Positions 2,035 through 44,807 of a stretch of 51,462 bases of DNA are shown piece after piece. A program made the position numbers and the translations under genes. Below the pieces are notes generated by a model. That model did not search any database and was not told the origin of the DNA. It saw only the letters and a program-made list of their open reading frames with translations. The stretch comes from a virus. The DNA lies in the UHGV virus genome UHGV-0127437; one strand, given 5' to 3'. The number at the start of each line of letters is the position of its first letter. Positions within the stretch are counted from its first letter, which is position 1.

Positions 2035-2397
2035 ATGTTAAAGCTATTTAGTCGATATGTTTCGGTTGGTGTTGTGAACACCGCGATTCATTGGTTATGC
2101 TTTGCTGGTTTGCTTCACTTCTTTGGCGCCAGCCAGGCCATTTCCAATGTTACGGCATTTTGCGTGGCTGTAACTTTTAGCTTCTTCGCTAATGCAAAGT
2201 TTACTTTCAACTCTCAGGCTACGACCGGGCGTTACATTGCGTTCGTCGTATTCATGGGGGTTATGGCTATGCTCACTGGGTTTATCGCAGATCAACTCAA
2301 GGCACCACCGATTTTAACGCTTGTGGCGTTCTCGGCTTTCAGCCTGATCGCGGGATTTATCTACTCAAAATTCATAGTATTTAGGGATGCTAAATGA
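2035..2397 (+). CDS. gtrA: GtrA, bactoprenol-linked glucose flippase (O-antigen modification)
   Basis: 120-aa membrane protein from ATG at 2035 ([20 protein letters not shown]...[11 protein letters not shown]...[11 protein letters not shown]) matching GtrA family signature; stop overlaps gtrB start (ATGA). Confidence 0.8.
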
Positions 2398-3314
2398 AAA
2401 TCTCTCTGATCGTTCCGGTCTTCAATGAAGAGGCCACGATACCGATTTTCTACAAAACGGTTCGGGAATTCGACGAATTAAAACAACATGAAGTTGAGAT
2501 AGTATTCATCAACGATGGCAGCAAAGACACAACGGAATCAATTATCAATGCGCTTGCTGTATCCGATCCGCTCGTCATGCCATTATCATTTACCCGTAAT
2601 TTTGGCAAGGAGCCAGCTTTGTTTGCCGGGCTTGATCACGCAACAGGTGATGCTGTTATCCCTATCGATGTCGATTTACAAGACCCCATTGAAGTTATCC
2701 CGCATCTGATAGAGAAATGGCAGGCTGGCGCTGATATGGTTCTGGCTAAACGCACCGATCGTTCAACGGATGGAAGGCTAAAACGAAAGACCGCAGAATG
2801 GTTCTACAAGTTACACAACAAAATCAGCAACCCACAGATCGAAGAGAATGTGGGTGATTTCCGTCTCATGTCCCGTGAGGTTGTGGAAAACATTAAGCTA
2901 ATGCCAGAACGTAACTTGTTCATGAAAGGCGTTCTTAGCTGGGTTGGCGGAAAGACTGACGTTGTGGAATATGCCCGCGGCGAGCGCGTAGCTGGTGACT
3001 CTAAATTCAATGGCTGGAAATTATGGAATCTGGCTCTTGAAGGGATCACCTCCTTCTCAACGTTTCCGCTACGCATGTGGACATACATTGGCCTTTTTGT
3101 CGCAGGTCTGTCATTCCTGTATGGGGCATGGATGATTGTTGATAAGTTATTTTTCGGCAACAGCGTCCCTGGCTATCCGTCGCTGCTTGTATCAATACTT
3201 TTCTTGGGGGGTATTCAACTTATTGGGATCGGTGTTCTTGGTGAGTATATAGGAAGAATTTATATAGAAACAAAGAAAAGACCAAAATATATTTTGGGGA
3301 AACGCAAAAAATGA
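2394..3314 (+). CDS. gtrB: GtrB, bactoprenol glucosyltransferase (GT2 family)
   Basis: 306-aa [16 protein letters not shown]...INDGSKD...DVDLQDP motifs of GT-A glycosyltransferase, C-terminal TM helices; operon position after gtrA. Confidence 0.85.
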
Positions 3315-4909
3315 GAATAACGAAGATTTTTATTGTCACTTTGACATTCATTGTTATAAGTCTGCCTTTATTTGGTCACTTCTGGACGTCAGGAGACCTG
3401 TCCGCCCATTATTATAGGCTCATATCTATAAAACATCAGTTGGAAACACATCAGTTTCCGATGTATTTCGATTTCGTAACTGATAACATGCAAGGGTATG
3501 GATATTCATGGAATTTATTTTACCCTCCACTGACAGCTTTTCTGTATACAATTATAGAGCTATTAAGCTTTAATAGCATTGATGCTGTTATACAGTTAAA
3601 AATAAGCATAGCAATAATCTCAGCAATAAATTTTTTTATTATGTATTTTTCTGTAAAGAGAATTTTCAACTCTTCACAAATTGCTTTTATCTCAGCGATA
3701 CTATCCGTTACATCATACTATTTTCTATACAATCAATACACTCGCTCTGCATTTCCTGAAGCTCTTGCTATGAGCTTTGTACCCTTGTTACTTTTGGGGC
3801 TATTTGGGTACATCAACAACAATAAAAATAAAATTTATTTACCATTGTCGTTTTCGTTAATACTGTTAACAAATATACCCGCAACCATTGTCACTCTTAT
3901 ATTTATAACTTTATTTGTAGTAATCTTTCATAAGAAATTCATAGAACAATATCGAGATGTAATTTTACATTCATTTATAGTTATTGGTATAACGTCATTT
4001 TTTATACTTCCGCTTTATTACACATCTAAAGGTGACATTTACGCCTTTACATCTATGAAATCAAGTTATGAATCAATGTGGAAGCTAACCATACCAGTTA
4101 TTAACTTAATCATACCGACAAGAACAACGGAGTACCCTTTCAGACTTATTACACCGGGATGGGTTATAATGGGGCTAATAATAGCCTTGTTCACCATGAA
4201 AAAAAATGGTGATAAATTATCTTCCATGCTTGATGGGCACCATAAGGTGGCTATTTCAATATCTTTATTATTCATAATAATGTGCTCACAAATGTTCCCA
4301 TGGAATCACATACCAAAACAGCTTCCGGTACTTAATTTCATTCAGTTCCCCTGGCGAATGATGCTTATATCATCGCCAATCCTGTGCATTTTCGCTGCTC
4401 TAACTCTTGTCAAAATCGCCCAAGAATCCCAAGGGAAGAAAGGTTTAATTTATATTGTCATATTTTCATCAATTATTCTTTCTATGTATGCGTCAACAAG
4501 TCCATTCGATAACAAGGCGAGACTGCCATGGTATCAAGTATATCTTGATTACATGCCTAACAACATGGCGAGAAAAATAAATGAAATTAAAAAAACCAAA
4601 AAAGAACCTATAGTGTTAAGTGGAAATGGAAGTATTGTAAGCGCTAGATTAACTGGCGGCTATCCAACATATAAATATATTTGCATGGATGATTGTACAA
4701 TTCAACTTCCTGTAATTCCTTATAGAGGATATGAGGTAGAAGGAGTTAAATCTTTTTCTGAAAACAACATGGGGTTGATGCAGGTTAACGTATCAAAAGG
4801 GAGTGGGCAAATAAATTTAAAATATAATCCAATTATTATCTACATATCATACGGAATTACGTTAATCACAATAATATTGTTGTTATATTTTACAAGAAGA
4901 AAATCATGA
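3311..4909 (+). CDS. GtrC-like serotype-specific O-antigen glucosyltransferase (polytopic membrane protein)
   Basis: 532-aa very AT-rich ORF with many predicted TM segments, third gene of gtr operon, start overlaps gtrB stop; followed by strong terminator. Confidence 0.6.
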
Positions 4910-4911
4910 TA

Positions 4912-4944
4912 GAAGGGGCCGCATAAAACGGCCCCTTCTTATTA
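4912..4944. terminator. Bidirectional rho-independent terminator between convergent gtrC and tailspike genes
   Basis: Perfect 10-bp stem gaaggggccg/cggccccttc with 8-nt loop, T-run on + strand after stem; lies between the two convergent stop codons. Confidence 0.7.
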
Positions 4945-6978
4945 AACTATATTACCCACACCATCTTTCCACGCACTTCCTGTCCATGTGATAGCATAAC
5001 CAAGAGTTGTATCCAGTATCTGCGCTCCTGCATCTGCTGCGTTTAATGAAGGGCGTAGTGCGGTCGTAAAGCTCGGTATCCGCACAGGTTTGTTAGCCTG
5101 TATGACGTTGTTCGGAGAAGTAATGTTACCAAAAGAACCAGATACTACGTGGATGACTGCGTAGCGATAACGTAACGCACCTACGCCAGTCCCTTCATCA
5201 GTGCCTAATGAAATAGTGCCGTCTCTGTGTGGCCGCAGGTACGCATGGCTACCTGACTCGTATACCGGGCCGAGGCGCATTGGGTTGGCGGTGCCGATAC
5301 AGATCCAGTTGGCAGAGAATAGCCGGTTATATGCTGTAGGGGCAGACCCATCAACATTATTGACTGTCAGGTCACTGACACCCAAGCCGTTGTGCCCACC
5401 AATAATACTCACTCGACCCGTAAGGTTAGTCATATAGTGGGTTCCAGCTTCACTATAGGTGTTTACCAAGTTAACGTTCGCTACCCGGTTCATGTAGAGA
5501 TTCCCTACACGAATGGTCGTGTTAACAAAGAATAGCTTGCTGCCGCGCCCATCCTGCCATTCTTTCGGATAACCGTTGACTGACGTTGTACCACTCCCAG
5601 ATCCGTCTGTAGCGTAATCGTTCATTCGGTTCGCGGGTTTCTCTGCGGTGTTTATCGCGGCATCGAGGTAAACCCCGCGAATGACGCTATTTGAGAAAAA
5701 CAGGTCGGACGTTCCTGTGCCGCCCCAAATCCAGTTAAGCGCGTAGCCGTTAGCCCCTTGCGGGTATTTAGTCCCGTCCCGGATATCCCGGTCAGTACCC
5801 TTTAGTTTCAACCCATACGAGCTAATCGCGCTTACCAACTGAGTGGGCTGTTTTGGGTCGAGAGGCCATGCAAAGAAATTATCGAATGACAAATCGCACA
5901 TGCTTTGACTGTTGATGCGCCCATTGATATTGAACGTATTGCCAGAACCGTTATTCTGGTCAGATCGGGAGCAGTCGAGGAGAACTGCATCATTCGCAAA
6001 GTAGCCGATAACCGCAGTACCAGACAAGGTTAACCCTGACACTGCCGGAACAAACAGGCCATATGAGAAGCACGCCGTTGCCCCGACGTCATCCACCCCG
6101 GTCAGCGATGGCGCTTCAAGAGTCCCGTCTGTCCGTTTGCGCCACCCCATCAGCACAACGTTGTTGATTGAGATTCCGTGGTCGCAAATACATAAGCCTG
6201 CACTGATCGCCGGGTCATCAGCGCCCTCTACAACGTCTGTCAGGACGTACGTTGCGGGGGTGCCTTTGAGGTTAAATCGGGTAAATCCCGGATCACTGAT
6301 AAGCGTCGCGAGTGTCGTCGCCTCATGACGCATACTATGTGAACGCACCGTGACGGCCTGCGCACCGGTAATGGTCGTGTTTCGTGGGATCATTCCCCAT
6401 TCAATATCAAAATCACCTGGGGGGAAGTGGCAGTTCCTACCAGCATTCTCATCTAAAAACGCCTGGATTTCTTCTTTTGTTGCGCCGCTTCCCCCCGTGA
6501 AATACACGTCATAAGACAGCCGTTCTGCAACCGTCACATCACCATAGCCGATCTGATCTGCACCGGTTGGCAGCGCCAGTTCGCGGCGCAGGACATCGCT
6601 GACATCTACGGCCAGCCATTTTCCGACACCTGTACCGCCGGATGAATCTGGAGTAGAGCCTGGCGGAACGGTTTTCGGTAGGGTCGTTAGATCATCCCAG
6701 CGATACCATGCGCCTGTTGTCTCATCCTGAATGATGTCACCGGCGGAATTAATAACCGCCCCGCCCTGAAATGTCCCGACTGGATTTAAGCCGAGGTTCG
6801 CGAGCGCTGTTTTATAACGCTCTTCCATTCCATGCCACGTAAGGCGCGGCACGCCAAAACGGTCATCCCATGTTTCATTAACCCGGTCATTCGAAAGGTG
6901 ATCAAAGTTCTGTGCGTTATCGTAAAGAACCTTGGCGGATGCAGAACCAAGAGGTTCATTGGTGTTATAGGTGGTCAT
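4942..6978 (-). CDS. Tailspike / tail fiber receptor-binding protein (likely O-antigen specific, beta-helix type)
   Basis: 678-aa ORF, ATG start; conserved phage-tail-attachment-like N-terminus, Gly/Asn/Thr-rich repetitive body typical of beta-helical tailspikes; P22-like position next to gtr operon at prophage end. Confidence 0.65.
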   Translation of the reverse strand: MTTYNTNEPLGSASAKVLYDNAQNFDHLSNDRVNETWDDRFGVPRLTWHGMEERYKTALANLGLNPVGTFQGGAVINSAGDIIQDETTGAWYRWDDLTTLPKTVPPGSTPDSSGGTGVGKWLAVDVSDVLRRELALPTGADQIGYGDVTVAERLSYDVYFTGGSGATKEEIQAFLDENAGRNCHFPPGDFDIEWGMIPRNTTITGAQAVTVRSHSMRHEATTLATLISDPGFTRFNLKGTPATYVLTDVVEGADDPAISAGLCICDHGISINNVVLMGWRKRTDGTLEAPSLTGVDDVGATACFSYGLFVPAVSGLTLSGTAVIGYFANDAVLLDCSRSDQNNGSGNTFNINGRINSQSMCDLSFDNFFAWPLDPKQPTQLVSAISSYGLKLKGTDRDIRDGTKYPQGANGYALNWIWGGTGTSDLFFSNSVIRGVYLDAAINTAEKPANRMNDYATDGSGSGTTSVNGYPKEWQDGRGSKLFFVNTTIRVGNLYMNRVANVNLVNTYSEAGTHYMTNLTGRVSIIGGHNGLGVSDLTVNNVDGSAPTAYNRLFSANWICIGTANPMRLGPVYESGSHAYLRPHRDGTISLGTDEGTGVGALRYRYAVIHVVSGSFGNITSPNNVIQANKPVRIPSFTTALRPSLNAADAGAQILDTTLGYAITWTGSAWKDGVGNIV

Positions 6979-26109: not shown

Positions 26110-26748
26110 TCAAGCCAGTTTCAGCATGCACGTCCCGCACGCTCTGGCAATGTTAAGATGTGCAACCTCCGCAGGCTTATTCGCCGCATCAACCATTTCC
26201 TGCACTTCATTACTGGCACCGTATCGGCGTACGACACCGACAAATTCTTCGACATCATGTCCGCGCAATGTCAGTACCGGCTGACCGGTCTCTTTATTGA
26301 ACTTCGGCGCGCCATAGTCGTCGGTAGACTGGGCAATATGGTAAAGCTCATGCTCTACCAGTGCGCAGAACTCAAGGTCACTGCATTGTGAGCAGTAATC
26401 GGCTGCCAGCGTGATGATGAACTTCGGAATGCGCCCGAACCATTCATACATCTGCTGTTCCATTCTGGCCTTCTGCCAGCCGCCGGCGCGGAGTATTACC
26501 TGTTCGGCCTGGCCGAGAACGTAGCGCCCTTTCTTCGCGAACGAATCGGACGCCCACATGAAGCAGAGATCGGCATCAATCAGGTGCGCGTGGTCAGGGT
26601 TATGGATGCTTCCTGTATCGCTCAGGATTTGCCTGTTTATCCACTCATGCACTTCATTGGCGGGGATCAGCCTGGTGTATGGCTGCCAGTTTTCAGCATT
26701 GATAAAGTTAACCGGCGGGAGTGGCCTGCGCTCGTCATCGTTAGCCAT
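26110..26748 (-). CDS. Phage protein with HExxH motif (putative metallopeptidase-like domain)
   Basis: 212-aa ORF, ATG start; motif VEHELYHIAQ; upstream of terminase genes. Confidence 0.5.
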   Translation of the reverse strand: MANDDERRPLPPVNFINAENWQPYTRLIPANEVHEWINRQILSDTGSIHNPDHAHLIDADLCFMWASDSFAKKGRYVLGQAEQVILRAGGWQKARMEQQMYEWFGRIPKFIITLAADYCSQCSDLEFCALVEHELYHIAQSTDDYGAPKFNKETGQPVLTLRGHDVEEFVGVVRRYGASNEVQEMVDAANKPAEVAHLNIARACGTCMLKLA

Positions 26749-27124
26749 GAGTTAATCCTGTTTGAAGAAAAGGTAAGTAACCAGATTCGCCCGCCACGGC
26801 TCCGGCTGGCCGCTATGAAGGTAAAAGCTCGCGTTACCATCGCGAGGAAAACCCGGCGTGACCCGTTTTTGAATAACCACGCTCACTCGCGCAGGGAGAA
26901 TCCTCCTCAAGGAGGCTGCGGTCTTAGTTCGGGCGTGGAGACTGCGACGAATCGGCGCTATGGGCATTCTTGTCGCAGCGGTCGCCACCATCTCACGATG
27001 TTGCTATGCCACTTCCGTCTGTTCCGGCTGCCAAGATATGGATCACCTCATTGGTTGATGCCAATCTATGCTTCTTGTCGGGTAAGCATCAGCAAAGCAC
27101 CTTGGAAAGTGATTTGGTGATGCC

Positions 27125-27161
27125 AACAAAAAACCGCCCGGAGGCGGCTATTTTATTTTTT
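27125..27161. terminator. Rho-independent terminator (bidirectional) after low-GC moron gene
   Basis: Stem ccgcc/ggcgg with cgga loop flanked by A-run (5') and T-run (3'); sits at stop codon of the 119-aa gene. Confidence 0.65.
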
Positions 27162-27512
27162 AGTAACTGTATATCGTATGGCCGTAGTCGTCATACGGCT
27201 GGCTGTGATGAATATTTTATATTTAATTTTTTCTGCATTAAAGAAATCTTTTAAGAGCTTATAGTAACGTTTAGTTATCTCTGCCCCTCTGTTTTTAATA
27301 TCTCCTTGAGTAAGCCCCTCACCTTCGTAAGTAATTTCAGCTTTTCTTTTCCCTAAGTAAACATTTTCGGGAAGCTCGTTACCATCGAAATCCTTCTTAA
27401 GTCCATTTTTTTCAAGTAGCTCGGAAACCTCACTATAGATGTTCGACTTATCACCGACCGTAATATCGAAGGTAACCATTACATAATATGAAATTGTGGC
27501 TTTTTTTGACAT
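27153..27512 (-). CDS. Hypothetical low-GC moron protein (unknown function)
   Basis: 119-aa ORF, ATG with GGAGAAA RBS, AT-rich codon usage unlike flanking phage genes, own terminator; between Rz/Rz1 and head genes. Confidence 0.5.
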   Translation of the reverse strand: MSKKATISYYVMVTFDITVGDKSNIYSEVSELLEKNGLKKDFDGNELPENVYLGKRKAEITYEGEGLTQGDIKNRGAEITKRYYKLLKDFFNAEKIKYKIFITASRMTTTAIRYTVTKK

Positions 27513-27623
27513 TCACTATTTCTCCATTGAAGCGAAGAAATAGTATCGGCAAGTCTAAAAAAAATTTTATTAACTAAGATCAGACATACTACATTCGACT
27601 TGATGCTTCTCTCGCCAGAAGAC

Positions 27624-28193
27624 TTAATCTGCACTATTTGCGGAACTCCTGTTGTTTGAGCTTCTAACTGACTCATAAATCTTCTCGCATGTCATTCCAG
27701 CTCGGTAGCTTTCGTCAGATCGCTCAGCATAATATCGAGCCTCTTCTGCAAGGCGTCCGAGCATGTCGGCGAGCATTCCGGCGTCGACTCCGGCTGTTTT
27801 GCTTCTGACGGAAGCGGCAAGATTTGCGGTGTGCTTTGCGGCGTCCAGGCGGGTAGCGAGTTTTTTTGCTTCGGTGCGCAGCTGGTTAACAGTGGCAGAC
27901 AGGCCAGCAGCAGTGGCAGCAGATTTAGCGGCTTGTGCTTGTGCATCTTTTACAGCCTCATCACGGGCAATTATGCGCCCTTGTTCAATCCAGCGGGCGG
28001 CGGCCTGTGCGTTCACTGTCTGTGACGACTCCGCACTGTCGCGCTCTGCCCATTTTTTTTGCCAGTCCCTGTCGCTCCAGACATTTCCGGTGATAAACGC
28101 GCCAGCCACCAGAAGTAAAACGACAACGGGTTTCCACCAGGCTTTTATGCCAGCAATTAACAGCGCCGGGTTCACTGGTCTATCCCCCAGCAC
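27624..28193 (-). CDS. Rz-like i-spanin (inner membrane spanin subunit)
   Basis: ORF after endolysin with N-terminal TM ([16 protein letters not shown]) and coiled-coil Ala/Gln-rich periplasmic domain; contains embedded Rz1 ORF in alternate frame; start is GTG. Confidence 0.6.
27692..27946 (-). CDS. Rz1-like o-spanin lipoprotein (embedded in Rz)
   Basis: ATG-start ORF wholly inside Rz in another frame; signal peptide with lipobox LLTSC and proline-rich mature region. Confidence 0.55.
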
Positions 28194-28702
28194 GTAAGCG
28201 CGCTTTCCTGGTCGCGACGGGAAACCTGCCCAAAGCAGTTATTGGAGCGAATGCGGCAATCTTTTCCGCCGTCGAATATCCAACGCCTGATTTCAGCACA
28301 GGCCCCTTTGCGGTCTCCTGCGTTCAGCTTACGAAAAAATCCAGATGGCAGGCATTTACCAGAGCCGATGTTGTACGGGCAGAACGACGCGATCCCCGCT
28401 TTCTGTGGTTCTGTCAGTGGTACTTTGATATTTCGCTCTACCCAGGCCAGCGCTTTATCGCGCTCAATGGCGTTTACCTGGTCACATTTCGCCTGCGTCA
28501 GCTTCATGCCCTGCACCACCGGTTTACCATCAACCATTGTGGCGCCACGGCAAATCGTCCAGATCCCGCCACCATCTTTGTACGCTGTCAGACTGTTACC
28601 CTCTTTCTCATTCAGGAACTGATCGAGAATAACCGACGCTGGCGCACCGGCGAGAACCAGTGCCAGAACGGCGGCACTAAGTTTTGCTCTCCACCCCATC
28701 AT
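28172..28702 (-). CDS. Endolysin, phage lysozyme (GH24-like) with N-terminal SAR-type signal anchor
   Basis: 176-aa ORF; catalytic-region motifs [20 protein letters not shown]...LTQAKCDQ; weakly hydrophobic Ala/Gly-rich N-terminus; overlaps holin stop. Confidence 0.8.
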
Positions 28703-29004
28703 TCACCAGCCTTAGTAAGCGCGTCGGCAACAACACTTACAGCCGCCGGACGCTCAGCAATGGGTTTATCACTGATTCCATCCAGGTAATCGCGGATCAT
28801 GGCTGTGCGCTTCTCGTCTTCTTTACGTTTACGACGGGCATCAATTCGGCCATTTACGTAAGAGATCAGAGAAATAAGCAGGCCGACAGCACCAAAGAAC
28901 ATGTAGACCATGTCCTGTGTGGTAAAACCTAATGCTGCCGCGAGGGTTCCAACCCACGCGAAAAACTGCGTGAAAATGTTCCCTGAGTGATCGTTCATTC
29001 TCAT
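28699..29004 (-). CDS. Holin (two-TM class, possibly pinholin partner of SAR endolysin)
   Basis: 101-aa ORF with two hydrophobic helices and charged C-terminus, immediately upstream of endolysin. Confidence 0.65.
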   Translation of the reverse strand: MRMNDHSGNIFTQFFAWVGTLAAALGFTTQDMVYMFFGAVGLLISLISYVNGRIDARRKRKEDEKRTAMIRDYLDGISDKPIAERPAAVSVVADALTKAGE

Positions 29005-29192: not shown

Positions 29193-29513
29193 TCAGTTTT
29201 TTGCTACCCATTCTCGCCAGCGGGCCTCTCTAATCTCAGGGCTCAGTCGCTGATCTTCAAAATGGTTTGCCAAATTTATCGAATCTGGCAGCAATGCCCA
29301 GGCGACATAGAAATCATGTGGCTCAAACTCTCCACCAGCAAATTCGTATGCACCAACATGGTAAACCTCGCCGTCTTCTTCGAGTGCCAGCACCTGAGCA
29401 ATATGCCAACCATCACAGGGGTTAAGAAGGATAACCCAACGCCCATTAAATTCTTTGGTTGGTTTTTCACTTGCGGGTCTGAAATGAAGCTGTTCGGTAA
29501 TTGGTTGCGACAT
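29193..29513 (-). CDS. Hypothetical protein between Q and holin
   Basis: ORF with ATG at 29513 and GGAG RBS; no recognisable motif. Confidence 0.45.
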   Translation of the reverse strand: MSQPITEQLHFRPASEKPTKEFNGRWVILLNPCDGWHIAQVLALEEDGEVYHVGAYEFAGGEFEPHDFYVAWALLPDSINLANHFEDQRLSPEIREARWREWVAKN

Positions 29514-29617
29514 ACTGGCTCCAGAAACGACAAAGCCCCGCACGATGGCGAGGCTTTAAGTTCGTCGACAATCAAAGCTATGGCGACAATATCAGATTTA
29601 CATGAAATATAGCCGTT

Positions 29618-30301
29618 TTAATCTACTTTTGCAATACTTTGCTCACAATTTGTCGCTTTTTGCTGCGAACGTGTTTTGGTTAATGATAGTAATGATTCCC
29701 TGTCCAGTTCAGCAAACAGTCGGAGCATACCCAACCAGTGCGCTGTAAAGGTCTTGGACCAGTTTTTATCCTCTACCCCCACCAGCGCCGCGAGATCGGC
29801 ATATTGATACTGCTCACGCCCTGCCAGCGCTGATTTCATATCCTGCGCCGCCAGCCAGATAAGCTGCCGCAGACGCTCTATTGTCTTTTTCGCCACGCGC
29901 TTCCCCCCCATTTGCTTACTGAACTGCTCCCACGCCCAGCGAGTAATGATTACCTGGTGATCCCAGCATGTGCTTTCGCTGTAATTCCAGAGCAACCAGG
30001 CTTTTTGATGCTCGTCGAGTGACATTAGCGCCCGACGCCATGAAGCAGTGGAGTATTCGACCGGCTGCACCAGCGGGATATGCGATCCTTTGGCGTGTGA
30101 TTGTTTTCCGGGGATCGGAGGGTTGTTCAGCGTTATCAGTTTTCCCGTAACTTCATCGCGTACACGCAACCTCTTGCGGGGATAAGTATTCGTATCGAAC
30201 TGCGCGTTCTCCAGCCAGGCCATTAACTGTCCCTTTGTCGCTCCGCTCAGATCTACCGTGGCCGCAATCAGTTGCTGACGAATATAGGATAAATTTTTCA
30301 C
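29618..30301 (-). CDS. Late gene antiterminator (Q-like)
   Basis: 227-aa ORF directly upstream of lysis cassette and downstream of nin-like/rusA genes, the canonical Q position; GTG start with AGGGG RBS. Confidence 0.5.
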   Translation of the reverse strand: MKNLSYIRQQLIAATVDLSGATKGQLMAWLENAQFDTNTYPRKRLRVRDEVTGKLITLNNPPIPGKQSHAKGSHIPLVQPVEYSTASWRRALMSLDEHQKAWLLWNYSESTCWDHQVIITRWAWEQFSKQMGGKRVAKKTIERLRQLIWLAAQDMKSALAGREQYQYADLAALVGVEDKNWSKTFTAHWLGMLRLFAELDRESLLSLTKTRSQQKATNCEQSIAKVD

Positions 30302-33826: not shown

Positions 33827-34393
33827 CTATATGCTCAAGATAATAATATCACGCCCCAATAACACACTTACAATTGCGGGCCAATGACTAAAAATGAATA
33901 CAACCAAAGAGATGAGACATATTACAAAGATAATAATGCATAACCACTTCATTGAAAGGTATAATAACTCACCTCTTTTCACTCGCTTCCACTCTTTTTT
34001 TAATACATTATGGCTTGCCATGGTGAAATCATCGATATCTTCTTTTAAATCTGAAGAAGGTGTTCCAGAAGATACTTTAACATTAAGTAATTTAATGGCA
34101 TCTCTTAGAACAGTTTCTTCTCTTGAAGGTTTACTATGATTGAGCCTGAGATAAATTTCTGATTGAACTACTGTGATCCCTTTGTATGCAGATTTTCGTT
34201 CTTCATCTGAAACTTCCGAGTCTCTTCTCAATACATCATAAAATCCAAGCAGGTTTGAAAGAGCTTGCCTTAATTCAGAGATCCATGCCTGACGGAACTC
34301 AGATGTTTTTAGTTCCTTAGTAATAACAAGACTAATCATCGCGCCAATTGCGGCTAAAAATGCTATAATTACAGCAATGACAGGTTCATTCAC
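33827..34393 (-). CDS. Hypothetical membrane protein (N- and C-terminal TM helices), low-GC cargo
   Basis: 188-aa AT-rich ORF; hydrophobic termini flanking a charged central domain. Confidence 0.5.
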   Translation of the reverse strand: MNEPVIAVIIAFLAAIGAMISLVITKELKTSEFRQAWISELRQALSNLLGFYDVLRRDSEVSDEERKSAYKGITVVQSEIYLRLNHSKPSREETVLRDAIKLLNVKVSSGTPSSDLKEDIDDFTMASHNVLKKEWKRVKRGELLYLSMKWLCIIIFVICLISLVVFIFSHWPAIVSVLLGRDIIILSI

Positions 34394-34554
34394 TTTTCTT
34401 ACCCCTAAAATAATTAGCCTAAAAGCTCCTGAAATCAGAATATCTAATCTTACTGGATATAAATTTAAAGATAGACTTTAAAGCCAAACCTAGTATGTTA
34501 GAATAACCTTTTAACAAGAAGTTTGTCGACATTTTAACGTAACCGAGAAGTAAA

Positions 34555-35136
34555 ATGAACGCTAACTCACAGCCAACGCCAGATCAAGAAATCAAGATCG
34601 AGGTCATCCGCTGGCATCAAAAACTCCAGGAAATCACCTACATCGAAGCTGGTCAACACATGCGTGCTTTGAACCAACTGATGTGGCAGATTCCAAGTCT
34701 GGTAATCGCCATTAATGGTGGGCTCTGGTATGCTGCTACACTAGTTAATGAAGCCTCACTTTGGATGATTTTTGCTTTTTTAACAGTTTTCGACCTGCTC
34801 ACTATTTGCACGCTTTTTCGACTTAGGGTTCTGATAGGAAAAAAAATAACCAAACAAAATGATATTGAAGAACTATCGAAAAATAGCATACTTCAAGACC
34901 TTAGTAATAAATCCGGCATAATAATCTCACCTACCCCAGCTCCTAAAAAAGAGAGCAAGTTCATTGTAGTTGGATGCTGGACCATATGCTTATTGCTCTG
35001 CGCTATTATTAATTTTCATGGCTCATTTAATCCGTCGATATTTTCAAAACCTAGCGAAAACAATAAGTCCGAACAAAACACAACTCACCTCATCTGTGTT
35101 TCTAAGACAGCACCCACAAATGGAGAAATAAAATGA
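34555..35136 (+). CDS. Hypothetical polytopic membrane protein, low-GC cargo
   Basis: 193-aa ORF, ATG start; at least three hydrophobic helices; stop overlaps downstream methyltransferase start. Confidence 0.5.
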   Translation: MNANSQPTPDQEIKIEVIRWHQKLQEITYIEAGQHMRALNQLMWQIPSLVIAINGGLWYAATLVNEASLWMIFAFLTVFDLLTICTLFRLRVLIGKKITKQNDIEELSKNSILQDLSNKSGIIISPTPAPKKESKFIVVGCWTICLLLCAIINFHGSFNPSIFSKPSENNKSEQNTTHLICVSKTAPTNGEIK

Positions 35137-35738
35137 CCACATGGAAATTTTATGATGACAATGCCTTACGTTTATTTAATGACTATCAATCCCTAAATTT
35201 TAAAGATATATTTTCTGACGTTGAATCCTACTTCCTTGCTTCCCGCGGAGATGCTCTGGACGTAGGTGCTGGTTCTGGAAGGGATTCTGCTGCTTTATTT
35301 AAAATGGGCTACAATGTAACAGCTGTAGAGCCAAGCGATAACATGCGAAATCTTGCGGCCGAAAATCATAAGCACTGTGATATTACTTGGGTCAATGATT
35401 CATTGCCTGAACTAAGAAAGATCACTCAATCACTAAAGACCTTTGACCTTATAATTGTTAGTGCAGTCTGGATGCACCTAAATGAAAACCAGCAGGAGAG
35501 GTCGTTATTTACTCTATTCAATCTTCTATCCGCCAATGGAGTTATGATCATTACATTGCGATTAGGGCCAGCCGAACCCGATAGACAAATCAGTGTGATT
35601 TACACAGAAGATTTAATTGCTCTTTCAAAAAAATTAGGGCTAACGGTTGAATATATTAGCCCTGTCAATACGGATAGTTTTAATAGACCATCCGTTACTT
35701 GGCAAAAAGTGGTTTTATCTAAAAAAACCACTTCATAG
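35133..35738 (+). CDS. Class I SAM-dependent methyltransferase (substrate unknown)
   Basis: 201-aa ORF with motif I DVGAGSGRDSAAL and downstream acidic/hydrophobic motifs of Rossmann-fold MTases; no DPPY/NPPY DNA-MTase motif seen. Confidence 0.65.
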   Translation: MTTWKFYDDNALRLFNDYQSLNFKDIFSDVESYFLASRGDALDVGAGSGRDSAALFKMGYNVTAVEPSDNMRNLAAENHKHCDITWVNDSLPELRKITQSLKTFDLIIVSAVWMHLNENQQERSLFTLFNLLSANGVMIITLRLGPAEPDRQISVIYTEDLIALSKKLGLTVEYISPVNTDSFNRPSVTWQKVVLSKKTTS

Positions 35739-44680: not shown

Positions 44681-44807
44681 GCAAAAGCCCACACGAAGTG
44701 GGCCTGCCCGTCCGGCGTCACCGACCAAAGCGAACCGGACATTTCTACCTGGTAAAACCGAGGTGCCATTAAGGCGCCTCCATTCTACACGAATTGAGGA
44801 TAAAATA

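Follow-up and report, generated by a model that had tools for sequence, protein, structure and literature searches.

What is the short, AT-rich gene that stands between the lysis and the packaging genes of the virus genome UHGV-0127437, and what does it do there? The stretch analysed, called the window in what follows, comprises 51,462 nucleotides (nt) and derives from a Q-dependent, lambdoid prophage of Citrobacter koseri, a species in which the exact protein is present. An initial annotation, made by reading the letters of the DNA, had described the gene, encoding 119 amino acids (aa), as a moron with a terminator of its own. The gene is real, its product belongs to an unannotated family confined to Enterobacterales prophages, and together with its leader and terminator it forms a moron-type, horizontally shuffled insertion of prophage cargo. 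The best explanation, to which a probability of roughly 40% is given, is that of an AT-rich late-operon cassette of about 455 base pairs (bp) encoding a soluble protein that would be a divergent, stand-alone relative of Cas2, VapD and GhoS and would be gated at the level of translation.

The 119-aa open reading frame (ORF) behaves as a protein-coding gene under constraint. Specifically, nucleotide differences among eight homologous loci are concentrated at third codon positions, with a mean non-synonymous divergence (dN) of 0.13, a mean synonymous divergence (dS) of 1.29 and a dN/dS ratio of about 0.10, and the protein length is kept at 106-120 aa across 24 diverse family members. A spurious or decaying ORF in AT-rich junk DNA might be suspected from the sole annotation, "hypothetical protein", and from the lack of a family match in any of the libraries searched, but this reading is effectively refuted by the low dN/dS at saturated synonymous divergence, and the constant length, the confident AlphaFold model (predicted local distance difference test, pLDDT, of 92) and the joint conservation of the Shine-Dalgarno (SD) sequence, the leader structure and the terminator speak against it as well. 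The RefSeq version of the protein, CKO_01874 of strain ATCC BAA-895, starts at M12 and is 108 aa long; the longer, 119-aa form is favoured by the family-wide conservation of M1, of residues 1-11 and of the SD, and AlphaFold models residues 1-11 as part of strand 1 of the 119-aa protein.

The gene is part of a compact unit with sharp borders. In the alignment of the eight loci, the shared sequence opens with a "TGATCT" box some 70 nt before the ATG (27582) and stops just after the T-run of the terminator (27128), which delimits a shared cassette of about 455 bp (27128-27582, GC content 0.349) made of leader, one single ORF and terminator; the unit, initially placed at 27125-27512, in fact extends upstream to about 27582. 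Beyond these limits the loci are unrelated, except where a whole lysis cassette is common to them, and between the window and the loci L006 and L008 the homology stops directly after the T-run. The markedly AT-rich codon usage reported at first is confirmed, since the ORF has a GC content of 0.347 and a GC content at third codon positions (GC3) of 0.333, against 0.50-0.55 and 0.49-0.63, respectively, in six neighbouring genes and a GC content of about 0.52 in the flanks and of 0.497 in the whole window; moreover, family members are poorer in GC (0.32-0.40) than their flanks (0.47-0.53) in all 15 loci examined. The terminator that had been seen at the stop codon is there too, as a hairpin followed by six U residues; a hairpin and a T-run lie 3' of the stop in most family loci, and L017, whose protein is only 25% identical, has nearly the same GCCGCC..GGGCGG stem. 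Of its supposed bidirectional action, the pattern of A-run, hairpin and T-run does exist in the sequence, but the hairpin is convincing on the gene strand only (-16.5 kcal/mol, z = -3.5 versus shuffles, as against -8.9 kcal/mol and z = -0.3 on the plus strand), and no plus-strand gene converges on it. Polymerase modified by a Q protein, as in lambda, reads through intrinsic terminators, and the terminator would therefore matter only for transcripts of polymerase that is not Q-modified.

These traits place the cassette among the morons of lambdoid phages, with which it shares an extra gene at a module boundary of the late operon, an atypical base composition, an intrinsic terminator of its own, presence in some phages and absence from related ones, and a junction that bears other cargo in relatives. 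Specifically, phages with a lysis cassette 70-77% identical to that of the window (N15, whose cassette is 76% identical, Fraca and Eeyore) lack the gene, and in N15 the DUF2514 gene is followed by a terminator and then by unrelated genes; presence or absence among relatives, which had been proposed as a check, is thus polymorphic, the gene occurring in few prophages. The cassette apparently differs from morons in having no recognisable private sigma-70 promoter, the conserved upstream block being instead the arm that pairs with the SD, and in an insertion site that is unusually constant across otherwise unrelated flanks. In the sense of Juhala and Hendrix, as the definition is quoted in PMC2629481, the term moron is apt for the foreign base composition, the module junction, the polymorphism and the own terminator, whereas the strict definition may not fully apply, because a consensus private promoter was not found at a conserved place.

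The family itself is small and deeply diverged, with identities down to 21-25%. A word-indexed search of 5.8 billion proteins returned 17 close relatives at 61-96% identity, and an exhaustive HMMER search of 1.84 billion cluster representatives returned 19 proteins at E <= 0.001, 17 of them 106-120 aa long. Every named source belongs to the Enterobacterales (Citrobacter species, Leclercia, Pectobacterium, Pantoea, Morganella, Serratia fonticola, Enterobacter, Pseudescherichia and a single E. coli), and five proviral contigs of IMG/VR carry the gene, one of them encoding a 100% identical protein. Searches with tblastn gave zero matches to the family in 50,697 phage records and 72,556 plasmids, blastn gave zero matches to the gene in 5,426 complete E. 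coli genomes, megablast was likewise negative in the comparisons with phages, plasmids and E. coli, and GTDB species-representative genomes, scanned with two peptide patterns, yielded no confirmed locus. No literature on the family was found in the library searched, either by accession or under Cas2-like prophage genes.

The leader of the gene folds into an SD-sequestering hairpin, as do translational control elements of the RNA-thermometer or type-I-toxin-like kind, and its structure is conserved across diverged sequences. The initial annotation had credited the gene with a strong ribosome-binding site, and GGAGA does lie 8 nt before the ATG, but it is base-paired within a 13-bp hairpin and is, as such, occluded (Table 1). 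The most conserved block of the leader (…GATACTATTTCTTCG…, 27533-27545) is the anti-SD arm of this hairpin. In 27 of the 28 locus pairs the proportion of differences is lower in the 80 nt upstream of the gene (5-34%) than at its third codon positions (20-57%), and the leader is therefore under selection. Opening of the SD costs 13.0 kcal/mol in the window, as compared with 6.5 +/- 2.2 kcal/mol in shuffles; the cost is 8.6-16.7 kcal/mol in 11 of 12 family leaders, with at most 5% of shuffles reaching the observed value in 9 of the 12, and the other genes of the window require 2.4-7.2 kcal/mol in 8 cases out of 10, the remaining two (8.9 and 14.6 kcal/mol) including a doubtful GTG start. Opening energies were used instead of the pairing probability of the SD, which has little power since T-rich leaders pair purine-rich SDs by chance. 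The hairpin is regarded as structurally conserved because stems of 8-11 bp that occlude the SD are also formed in the diverged loci L016, L017 and L020, whose leaders are entirely different in sequence; in the close subfamily the stem hardly varies, and RNAalifold reports one compensatory pair there (A-U to G-C, in L010). Rfam searches of the region and of the whole window gave no match within the cassette. The conserved boxes further upstream (27546-27582) may have a function. A -10-like hexamer, GATACT, lies at 27542-27547, where a matching -35 or extended -10 element was not found, and such a hexamer (GATACT, GATAAT, GGTACT or GATAAA) recurs at or just before the anti-SD arm across leaders. 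A short, open transcript is hinted at because this recurrent hexamer abuts the anti-SD arm: an RNA starting there would lack the arm and be translatable, whereas the read-through late mRNA would be self-repressed.

As for the protein, its Lys/Tyr/Glu-rich composition and its lack of a transmembrane helix had been recognised correctly (K17, T12, I10, E10 and Y9; isoelectric point, pI, 9.4), as no hydrophobic stretch is present and the maximal Kyte-Doolittle mean over 19 residues is 0.65. Its predicted fold is ferredoxin-like. AlphaFold reaches a pLDDT of 83 and a predicted template modelling score (pTM) of 0.72 with 18 aligned sequences, and 91.9 and 0.81 with 24, both runs giving the order strand (3-17), helix (25-35), short strands (39-46), strand (51-62), helix (69-93) and strand (98-106), followed by a tail rich in Ser and Thr. 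The top match of Foldseek in the PDB is Cas2 SSO1404 (PDB 2ivy; probability 0.90, E 0.09, 22% identity), the next high-probability matches are Cas2 5zyf (0.80) and VapD (0.75), and GhoS is also among the best structural matches, which have modest scores; zero PDB matches lie at E <= 0.001, and a structural search of BFVD returned nothing informative. The ligand-binding ferredoxin-like proteins PII-like SbtB, MTH1187/YkoF-like and ACT score about as well as Cas2.

The likeness to Cas2 is also seen in conserved residues, albeit with weak profile statistics. D16 is invariant in the 24 diverse members and aligns with D10 of SSO1404 in both BLASTP and hhalign, and F15, D16, L33, P48, N50, Y52 and G54 of the family correspond to Y9, D10, L24, Q33, S35, F37 and G39 of Cas2 (SSO1404 numbering). 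The comparison of the family with a profile of Sulfolobales Cas2 (SSO1404 homologues) by hhalign gives P = 0.004 and aligns strand 1 and helix 1, and a relaxed run is co-linear through strand 1, helix 1, strand 3 ("ENVYLG"/"YSVFMG") and strand 4. In Sso Cas2, D10 is the catalytic Asp, the role of this residue in Cas2 and VapD has been described, and Q33-Y34-S35 lie at the strand 2-3 turn beside D10, like the SST motif of the Cas2/VapD-like nuclease BPSL1038 (PMC10491678). The statement that the protein has no motif that can be placed can be refined, in that the predicted fold is ferredoxin-like and closest to Cas2, VapD and GhoS, with an invariant Asp at what would be the catalytic position of Cas2.

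With Cas2 (SSO1404, PF09827) the family shares a hydrophobic strand 1 that ends in an invariant Asp and conserved residues at the strand 2-3 turn. It differs in having no PF09827 match, in its longer strand 1, longer helix 2 and Ser/Thr-rich C-terminal tail, in its motif, D(x31)PxNxY as against D(x22)QYS, and in a charge that is not conserved across members. Unlike Cas2 proper, it has no cas1, CRISPR array or other cas gene nearby, the neighbours being lysis and packaging genes in all loci, and a Cas2 proper of CRISPR adaptation was rejected as a candidate on this lack of cas/CRISPR context. What it has in common with the VapD toxins (PMC11980593, PMC3351183) is a small Cas2-like protein borne by mobile elements, the gene being in some cases solitary; vapD can indeed stand alone (PMC11980593), and elsewhere it is paired with VapX, VapY or VapW (PMC11980593, PMC3351183), and, by analogy, the tight control of expression found here would suit a toxic nuclease. 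In contrast to VapD, there is no adjacent antitoxin gene and no detectable sequence similarity, and control apparently lies in the SD hairpin rather than in a protein antitoxin. A VapD toxin-antitoxin pair was rejected, given that the cassette holds one ORF and its flanks vary between loci, which excludes the pair and not the fold family. On present statistics the family is not assignable to Cas2/VapD, and, by analogy, it may work most like stand-alone proteins of the Cas2/VapD type. A true kinship with Cas2/VapD is given slightly less than an even chance, and that the protein is an active nuclease is doubtful.

According to the explanation preferred here, the protein would act, in dimeric form, on RNA or DNA by means of the invariant Asp16 at the end of strand 1 and of the invariant P48-x-N50-x-Y52 turn. 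The conserved hairpin that buries the SD would keep translation low, so as to limit a potentially harmful protein or to confine it to one form of the transcript, and the terminator would stop any transcript made by polymerase that is not Q-modified. The benefit would likely be reaped in conflicts between phage and host or between phages, through exclusion or counter-defence, and not in lysis or packaging. Several findings weigh against this explanation. Each of the seven conserved family columns coincides with a conserved column of Cas2, in which 17 of 34 aligned positions are conserved, for a hypergeometric P of about 0.004; this value is optimistic, as it carries no correction for the fact that the columns were matched in an alignment optimised against the top structural match. 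Moreover, the probability that hhalign assigns to the match with the Cas2 profile is only 8.5%; PDB sequence searches with two profiles gave only chance matches, to eS17 and eIF5B, and none to Cas2 or VapD; and Pfam, NCBIfam, PHROG and PADLOC hold no sequence match to the family, either for the single protein or for all 24 members, even at E = 10. The pI of members varies between 4.8 and 9.4, a spread not expected of a general binder of nucleic acids, and the neighbours at other loci, an immunity protein and an Acb2/Tad1-type sponge, are binding proteins and not enzymes. Lastly, expression in the lysogen is conjectural, as no private promoter was found, in that a consensus -35/-10 pair is present neither in the leader of the window nor at a conserved place in 12 leaders.

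The place of the gene after Rz/Rz1 and before the terminase-proximal genes had been read correctly from the window, where the spanin genes lie upstream and the PhageMetallopep and terminase genes downstream, and it is a general trait of the family: in every locus long enough to show its context, the gene stands after the spanin genes and before HNH/terminase genes on the late-operon strand. This fixed position spans at least four types of lysis cassette and several types of terminase, including holins of types 2_1, 2_3, 3_1 and phrog_1350, spanins of the DUF2514, Phage_lysis and DUF2570/LysC types, and small terminases of the Terminase_4, DUF2280, Terminase_2 and Hendrixvirinae types, and it is the same even for the members P0031 and P0029, which are 25% and 28% identical to the window protein, respectively. 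A PF01320 colicin/pyocin (DNase) immunity gene of 83 aa lies directly upstream of the family member in two loci (L009 7649-7900 and L017 6645-6896), and an Acb2/Tad1-hairpin gene does so in Pantoea (L003 7492-7914; 39.5 bits versus a Pfam gathering cut-off of 27). The junction between lysis and packaging genes is thus a hot-spot at which cargo for immunity and counter-defence is inserted, in agreement with the first reading of this site as one of frequent moron insertion; several further cargo genes at the junction in relatives have no Pfam or PADLOC match. Co-evolution of the family with the upstream immunity gene was rejected, the immunity genes of L009 and L017 being 71% identical to each other and the members downstream of them 70% and 25% identical to the window protein.

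Two other sets of loci deserve mention as observations in their own right. Locus L010 (6761-9991) is a short prophage remnant that lies downstream of icd, surrounded by genes of core metabolism. It is devoid of lysis genes and holds an intact family member, an NYN-domain gene, a 99-aa ORF and an HNH gene, which suggests that this copy was retained after decay of the prophage. The Citrobacter prophages of L006 and L007, with a 96% identical homologue, also carry a gene of 408 aa with a pore-forming colicin domain (PF01024), and on the opposite strand, between the Q and holin genes, a DNA methylase and an AAA_15/AAA_21 ATPase form a pair that is possibly defence cargo.

The main rival to a nucleic-acid-directed Cas2/VapD/GhoS relative, in itself rather unlikely, is a non-catalytic binder, in which the ferredoxin/ACT-like fold would sequester a small signalling molecule or bind a protein, as an anti-defence sponge or inhibitor or as an orphan immunity protein that protects from a bacteriocin or a polymorphic toxin. 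The members that directly follow the Acb2/Tad1-hairpin gene in Pantoea and the PF01320 gene in L009 and L017 fit such a role, although a shared cargo hot-spot is weak evidence for a shared function, and PADLOC and the Pfam Acr, Acb, Tad and Imm models gave no match to the family at E <= 10. The unconserved charge (pI 4.8-9.4) and the comparable scores of SbtB, MTH1187/YkoF-like and ACT proteins also favour a binder, but the invariant polar residues D16, N50 and Y52 occupy positions of the Cas2 catalytic site. The fall of identity to 21-25%, while L017 keeps nearly the same terminator stem, would fit an arms-race protein; the close subfamily, however, is under plain purifying selection (omega of about 0.1) and is not diversifying. 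A further, improbable reading is a new kind of phage-borne conflict effector, a solitary Cas2/VapD-like nuclease that has no protein antitoxin and is gated by an RNA switch over the SD, acting either as an exclusion or abortive-infection toxin of the lysogen or as a Cas2 decoy that poisons spacer acquisition by the host Cas1-Cas2. For instance, translation could be confined to a short or processed transcript devoid of the anti-SD arm, the long, Q-antiterminated late transcript yielding no protein.

The remaining alternatives tie the gene to its neighbours. An accessory of lysis or packaging, such as a cytoplasmic regulator of holin or spanin timing kept beside the spanin genes, would account for a gene that is always downstream of these genes, on the same strand and in the late operon, next to several unrelated cassette types and with members only 25-28% identical. 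It is very unlikely, since not one of the 50,697 sequenced phages has the gene, even where the lysis cassette is closely related, its base composition is foreign, it is set apart from the spanin genes by 100 nt or more, or by unrelated cargo genes, some of them on the opposite strand, and the partner lysis genes are of different families, which argues against a specific protein partner; the intact copy in the remnant near icd, where lysis genes are lacking, points the same way. A conserved lysis accessory protein, named at the outset as what would overturn the moron reading, is thus not borne out, the gene being too rare, separable from the spanins by cargo and kept in a remnant free of lysis genes. 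Still less probable is a GhoS-like antitoxin RNase that would protect the lysogen by cutting the message of a small membrane-damaging protein, with leaky holin transcripts as a possible target. GhoS, the type V antitoxin endoribonuclease of E. coli (PDB 2llz), is of similar size and has a "Y-V-x-V-[ST]-F-D" first strand in common with the family ("YVV-SFD" in GhoS, "YVMVTFD" in the family), and the gene always lies beside cassettes that contain a holin. Unlike ghoS, it lies in a prophage late operon and is followed by no ghoT-like toxin gene, the terminator coming 3 nt past the stop, whereas E. coli ghoT lies 27 nt after ghoS; moreover, hhalign against E. coli GhoS gives a non-significant P of 0.44, and on these grounds a GhoS/GhoT system was rejected. 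The neighbouring holins are of different families, so that one sequence-specific RNase is unlikely to target them all, and a copy is kept in the remnant that has no holin gene.

Cargo of temperate phages at the junction between lysis and packaging genes includes virulence, immunity and counter-defence factors. If the Cas2/VapD-like core and the RNA-gated SD hold true, the family would add a compact and testable effector to this cargo and would illustrate a way to carry a potentially toxic protein with no antitoxin; if the protein is only a binder of an unknown ligand, the cassette is an ordinary orphan moron. The traits that are mildly unusual are the RNA-gated SD and the strictly conserved insertion site, and the reading is plausible rather than surprising. 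The family is small and Enterobacterales-confined, includes clinical Citrobacter species and is genetically tractable in C. koseri ATCC BAA-895.

Table 1. Positions in the window of the cassette elements and of the neighbouring genes
Feature	Position	Strand	Remarks
119-aa coding sequence	27153..27512	minus	ATG start, ends in TAA; from the ORF listing
Shine-Dalgarno sequence GGAGA	27521..27525	minus	8 nt upstream of the ATG; invariant in 8 close homologues
SD-sequestering hairpin	27514..27545	minus	arm 27533-27545 pairs with SD arm 27514-27526; 13 bp, 6-nt loop; minimum-free-energy folds
AT-rich 5' leader	27546..27582	minus	'TGATCTnnGTTAATAA' box and 'TTGCCGATA' box conserved in the 8-locus alignment; left cassette boundary at about 27582
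Intrinsic terminator	27128..27149	minus	GC-rich stem 27132-27149, U6 run 27128-27133; 3 nt past TAA; right cassette boundary
Q antiterminator gene (PF06323)	29618-30301	minus	Pfam; 2 kb upstream of the 119-aa gene
Holin gene	28699-29004	minus	upstream of the 119-aa gene
Lysozyme gene	28172-28702	minus	upstream of the 119-aa gene
DUF2514 Rz-like spanin gene	27624-28193	minus	upstream of the 119-aa gene
Rz1-like ORF	27692-27946	minus	embedded in the DUF2514 gene; upstream of the 119-aa gene
PhageMetallopep gene	26110-26748	minus	downstream; followed by DUF2280 small terminase, large terminase and portal genes

All neighbours of the gene share its strand, and a gene-free gap of 383 bp (26749-27131) separates it from the PhageMetallopep gene. 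Within the gap, a non-coding stretch of about 180 nt (26778-26963) is 68-69% identical to a stretch just downstream of Rz in the Stx-like phage PhiR12_3 (L019 2501-2679, unannotated) and to sequence in 26 E. coli chromosomes; it has no annotated feature and no Rfam match, and a pac/cos-related site, an RNA and a decayed gene are its possible identities.

Further upstream, between the Q antiterminator and holin genes, an Rfam match to isrJ (29532-29602, minus strand, 69 bits, above the gathering score) sits where the late promoter and leader are expected, and a match to isrB (100 bits, also above the gathering score) lies at 44682-44770 on the minus strand. Between the isrJ-like RNA and the holin gene, an ORF of 116 aa with a GTG start (29193-29543, minus strand) has no Pfam match, and its SD-opening cost is 14.6 kcal/mol, so that the called start may be wrong.

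The window holds two other islands of low GC content. The second one (2394-4909, plus strand, 0.34-0.35) codes for a family-2 glycosyltransferase and a large PTPS_related membrane protein and adjoins a tailspike gene (4942-6978, minus strand); it looks like a gtr-type module of O-antigen modification (serotype conversion) beside the tailspike. The third one (33827-35738, 0.37-0.41) contains two ORFs of 188 and 193 aa that have no family match and a SAM methyltransferase of 201 aa that matches the PADLOC model mad2 (E 2e-17), and a PAPS_reduct-domain gene adjoins it.

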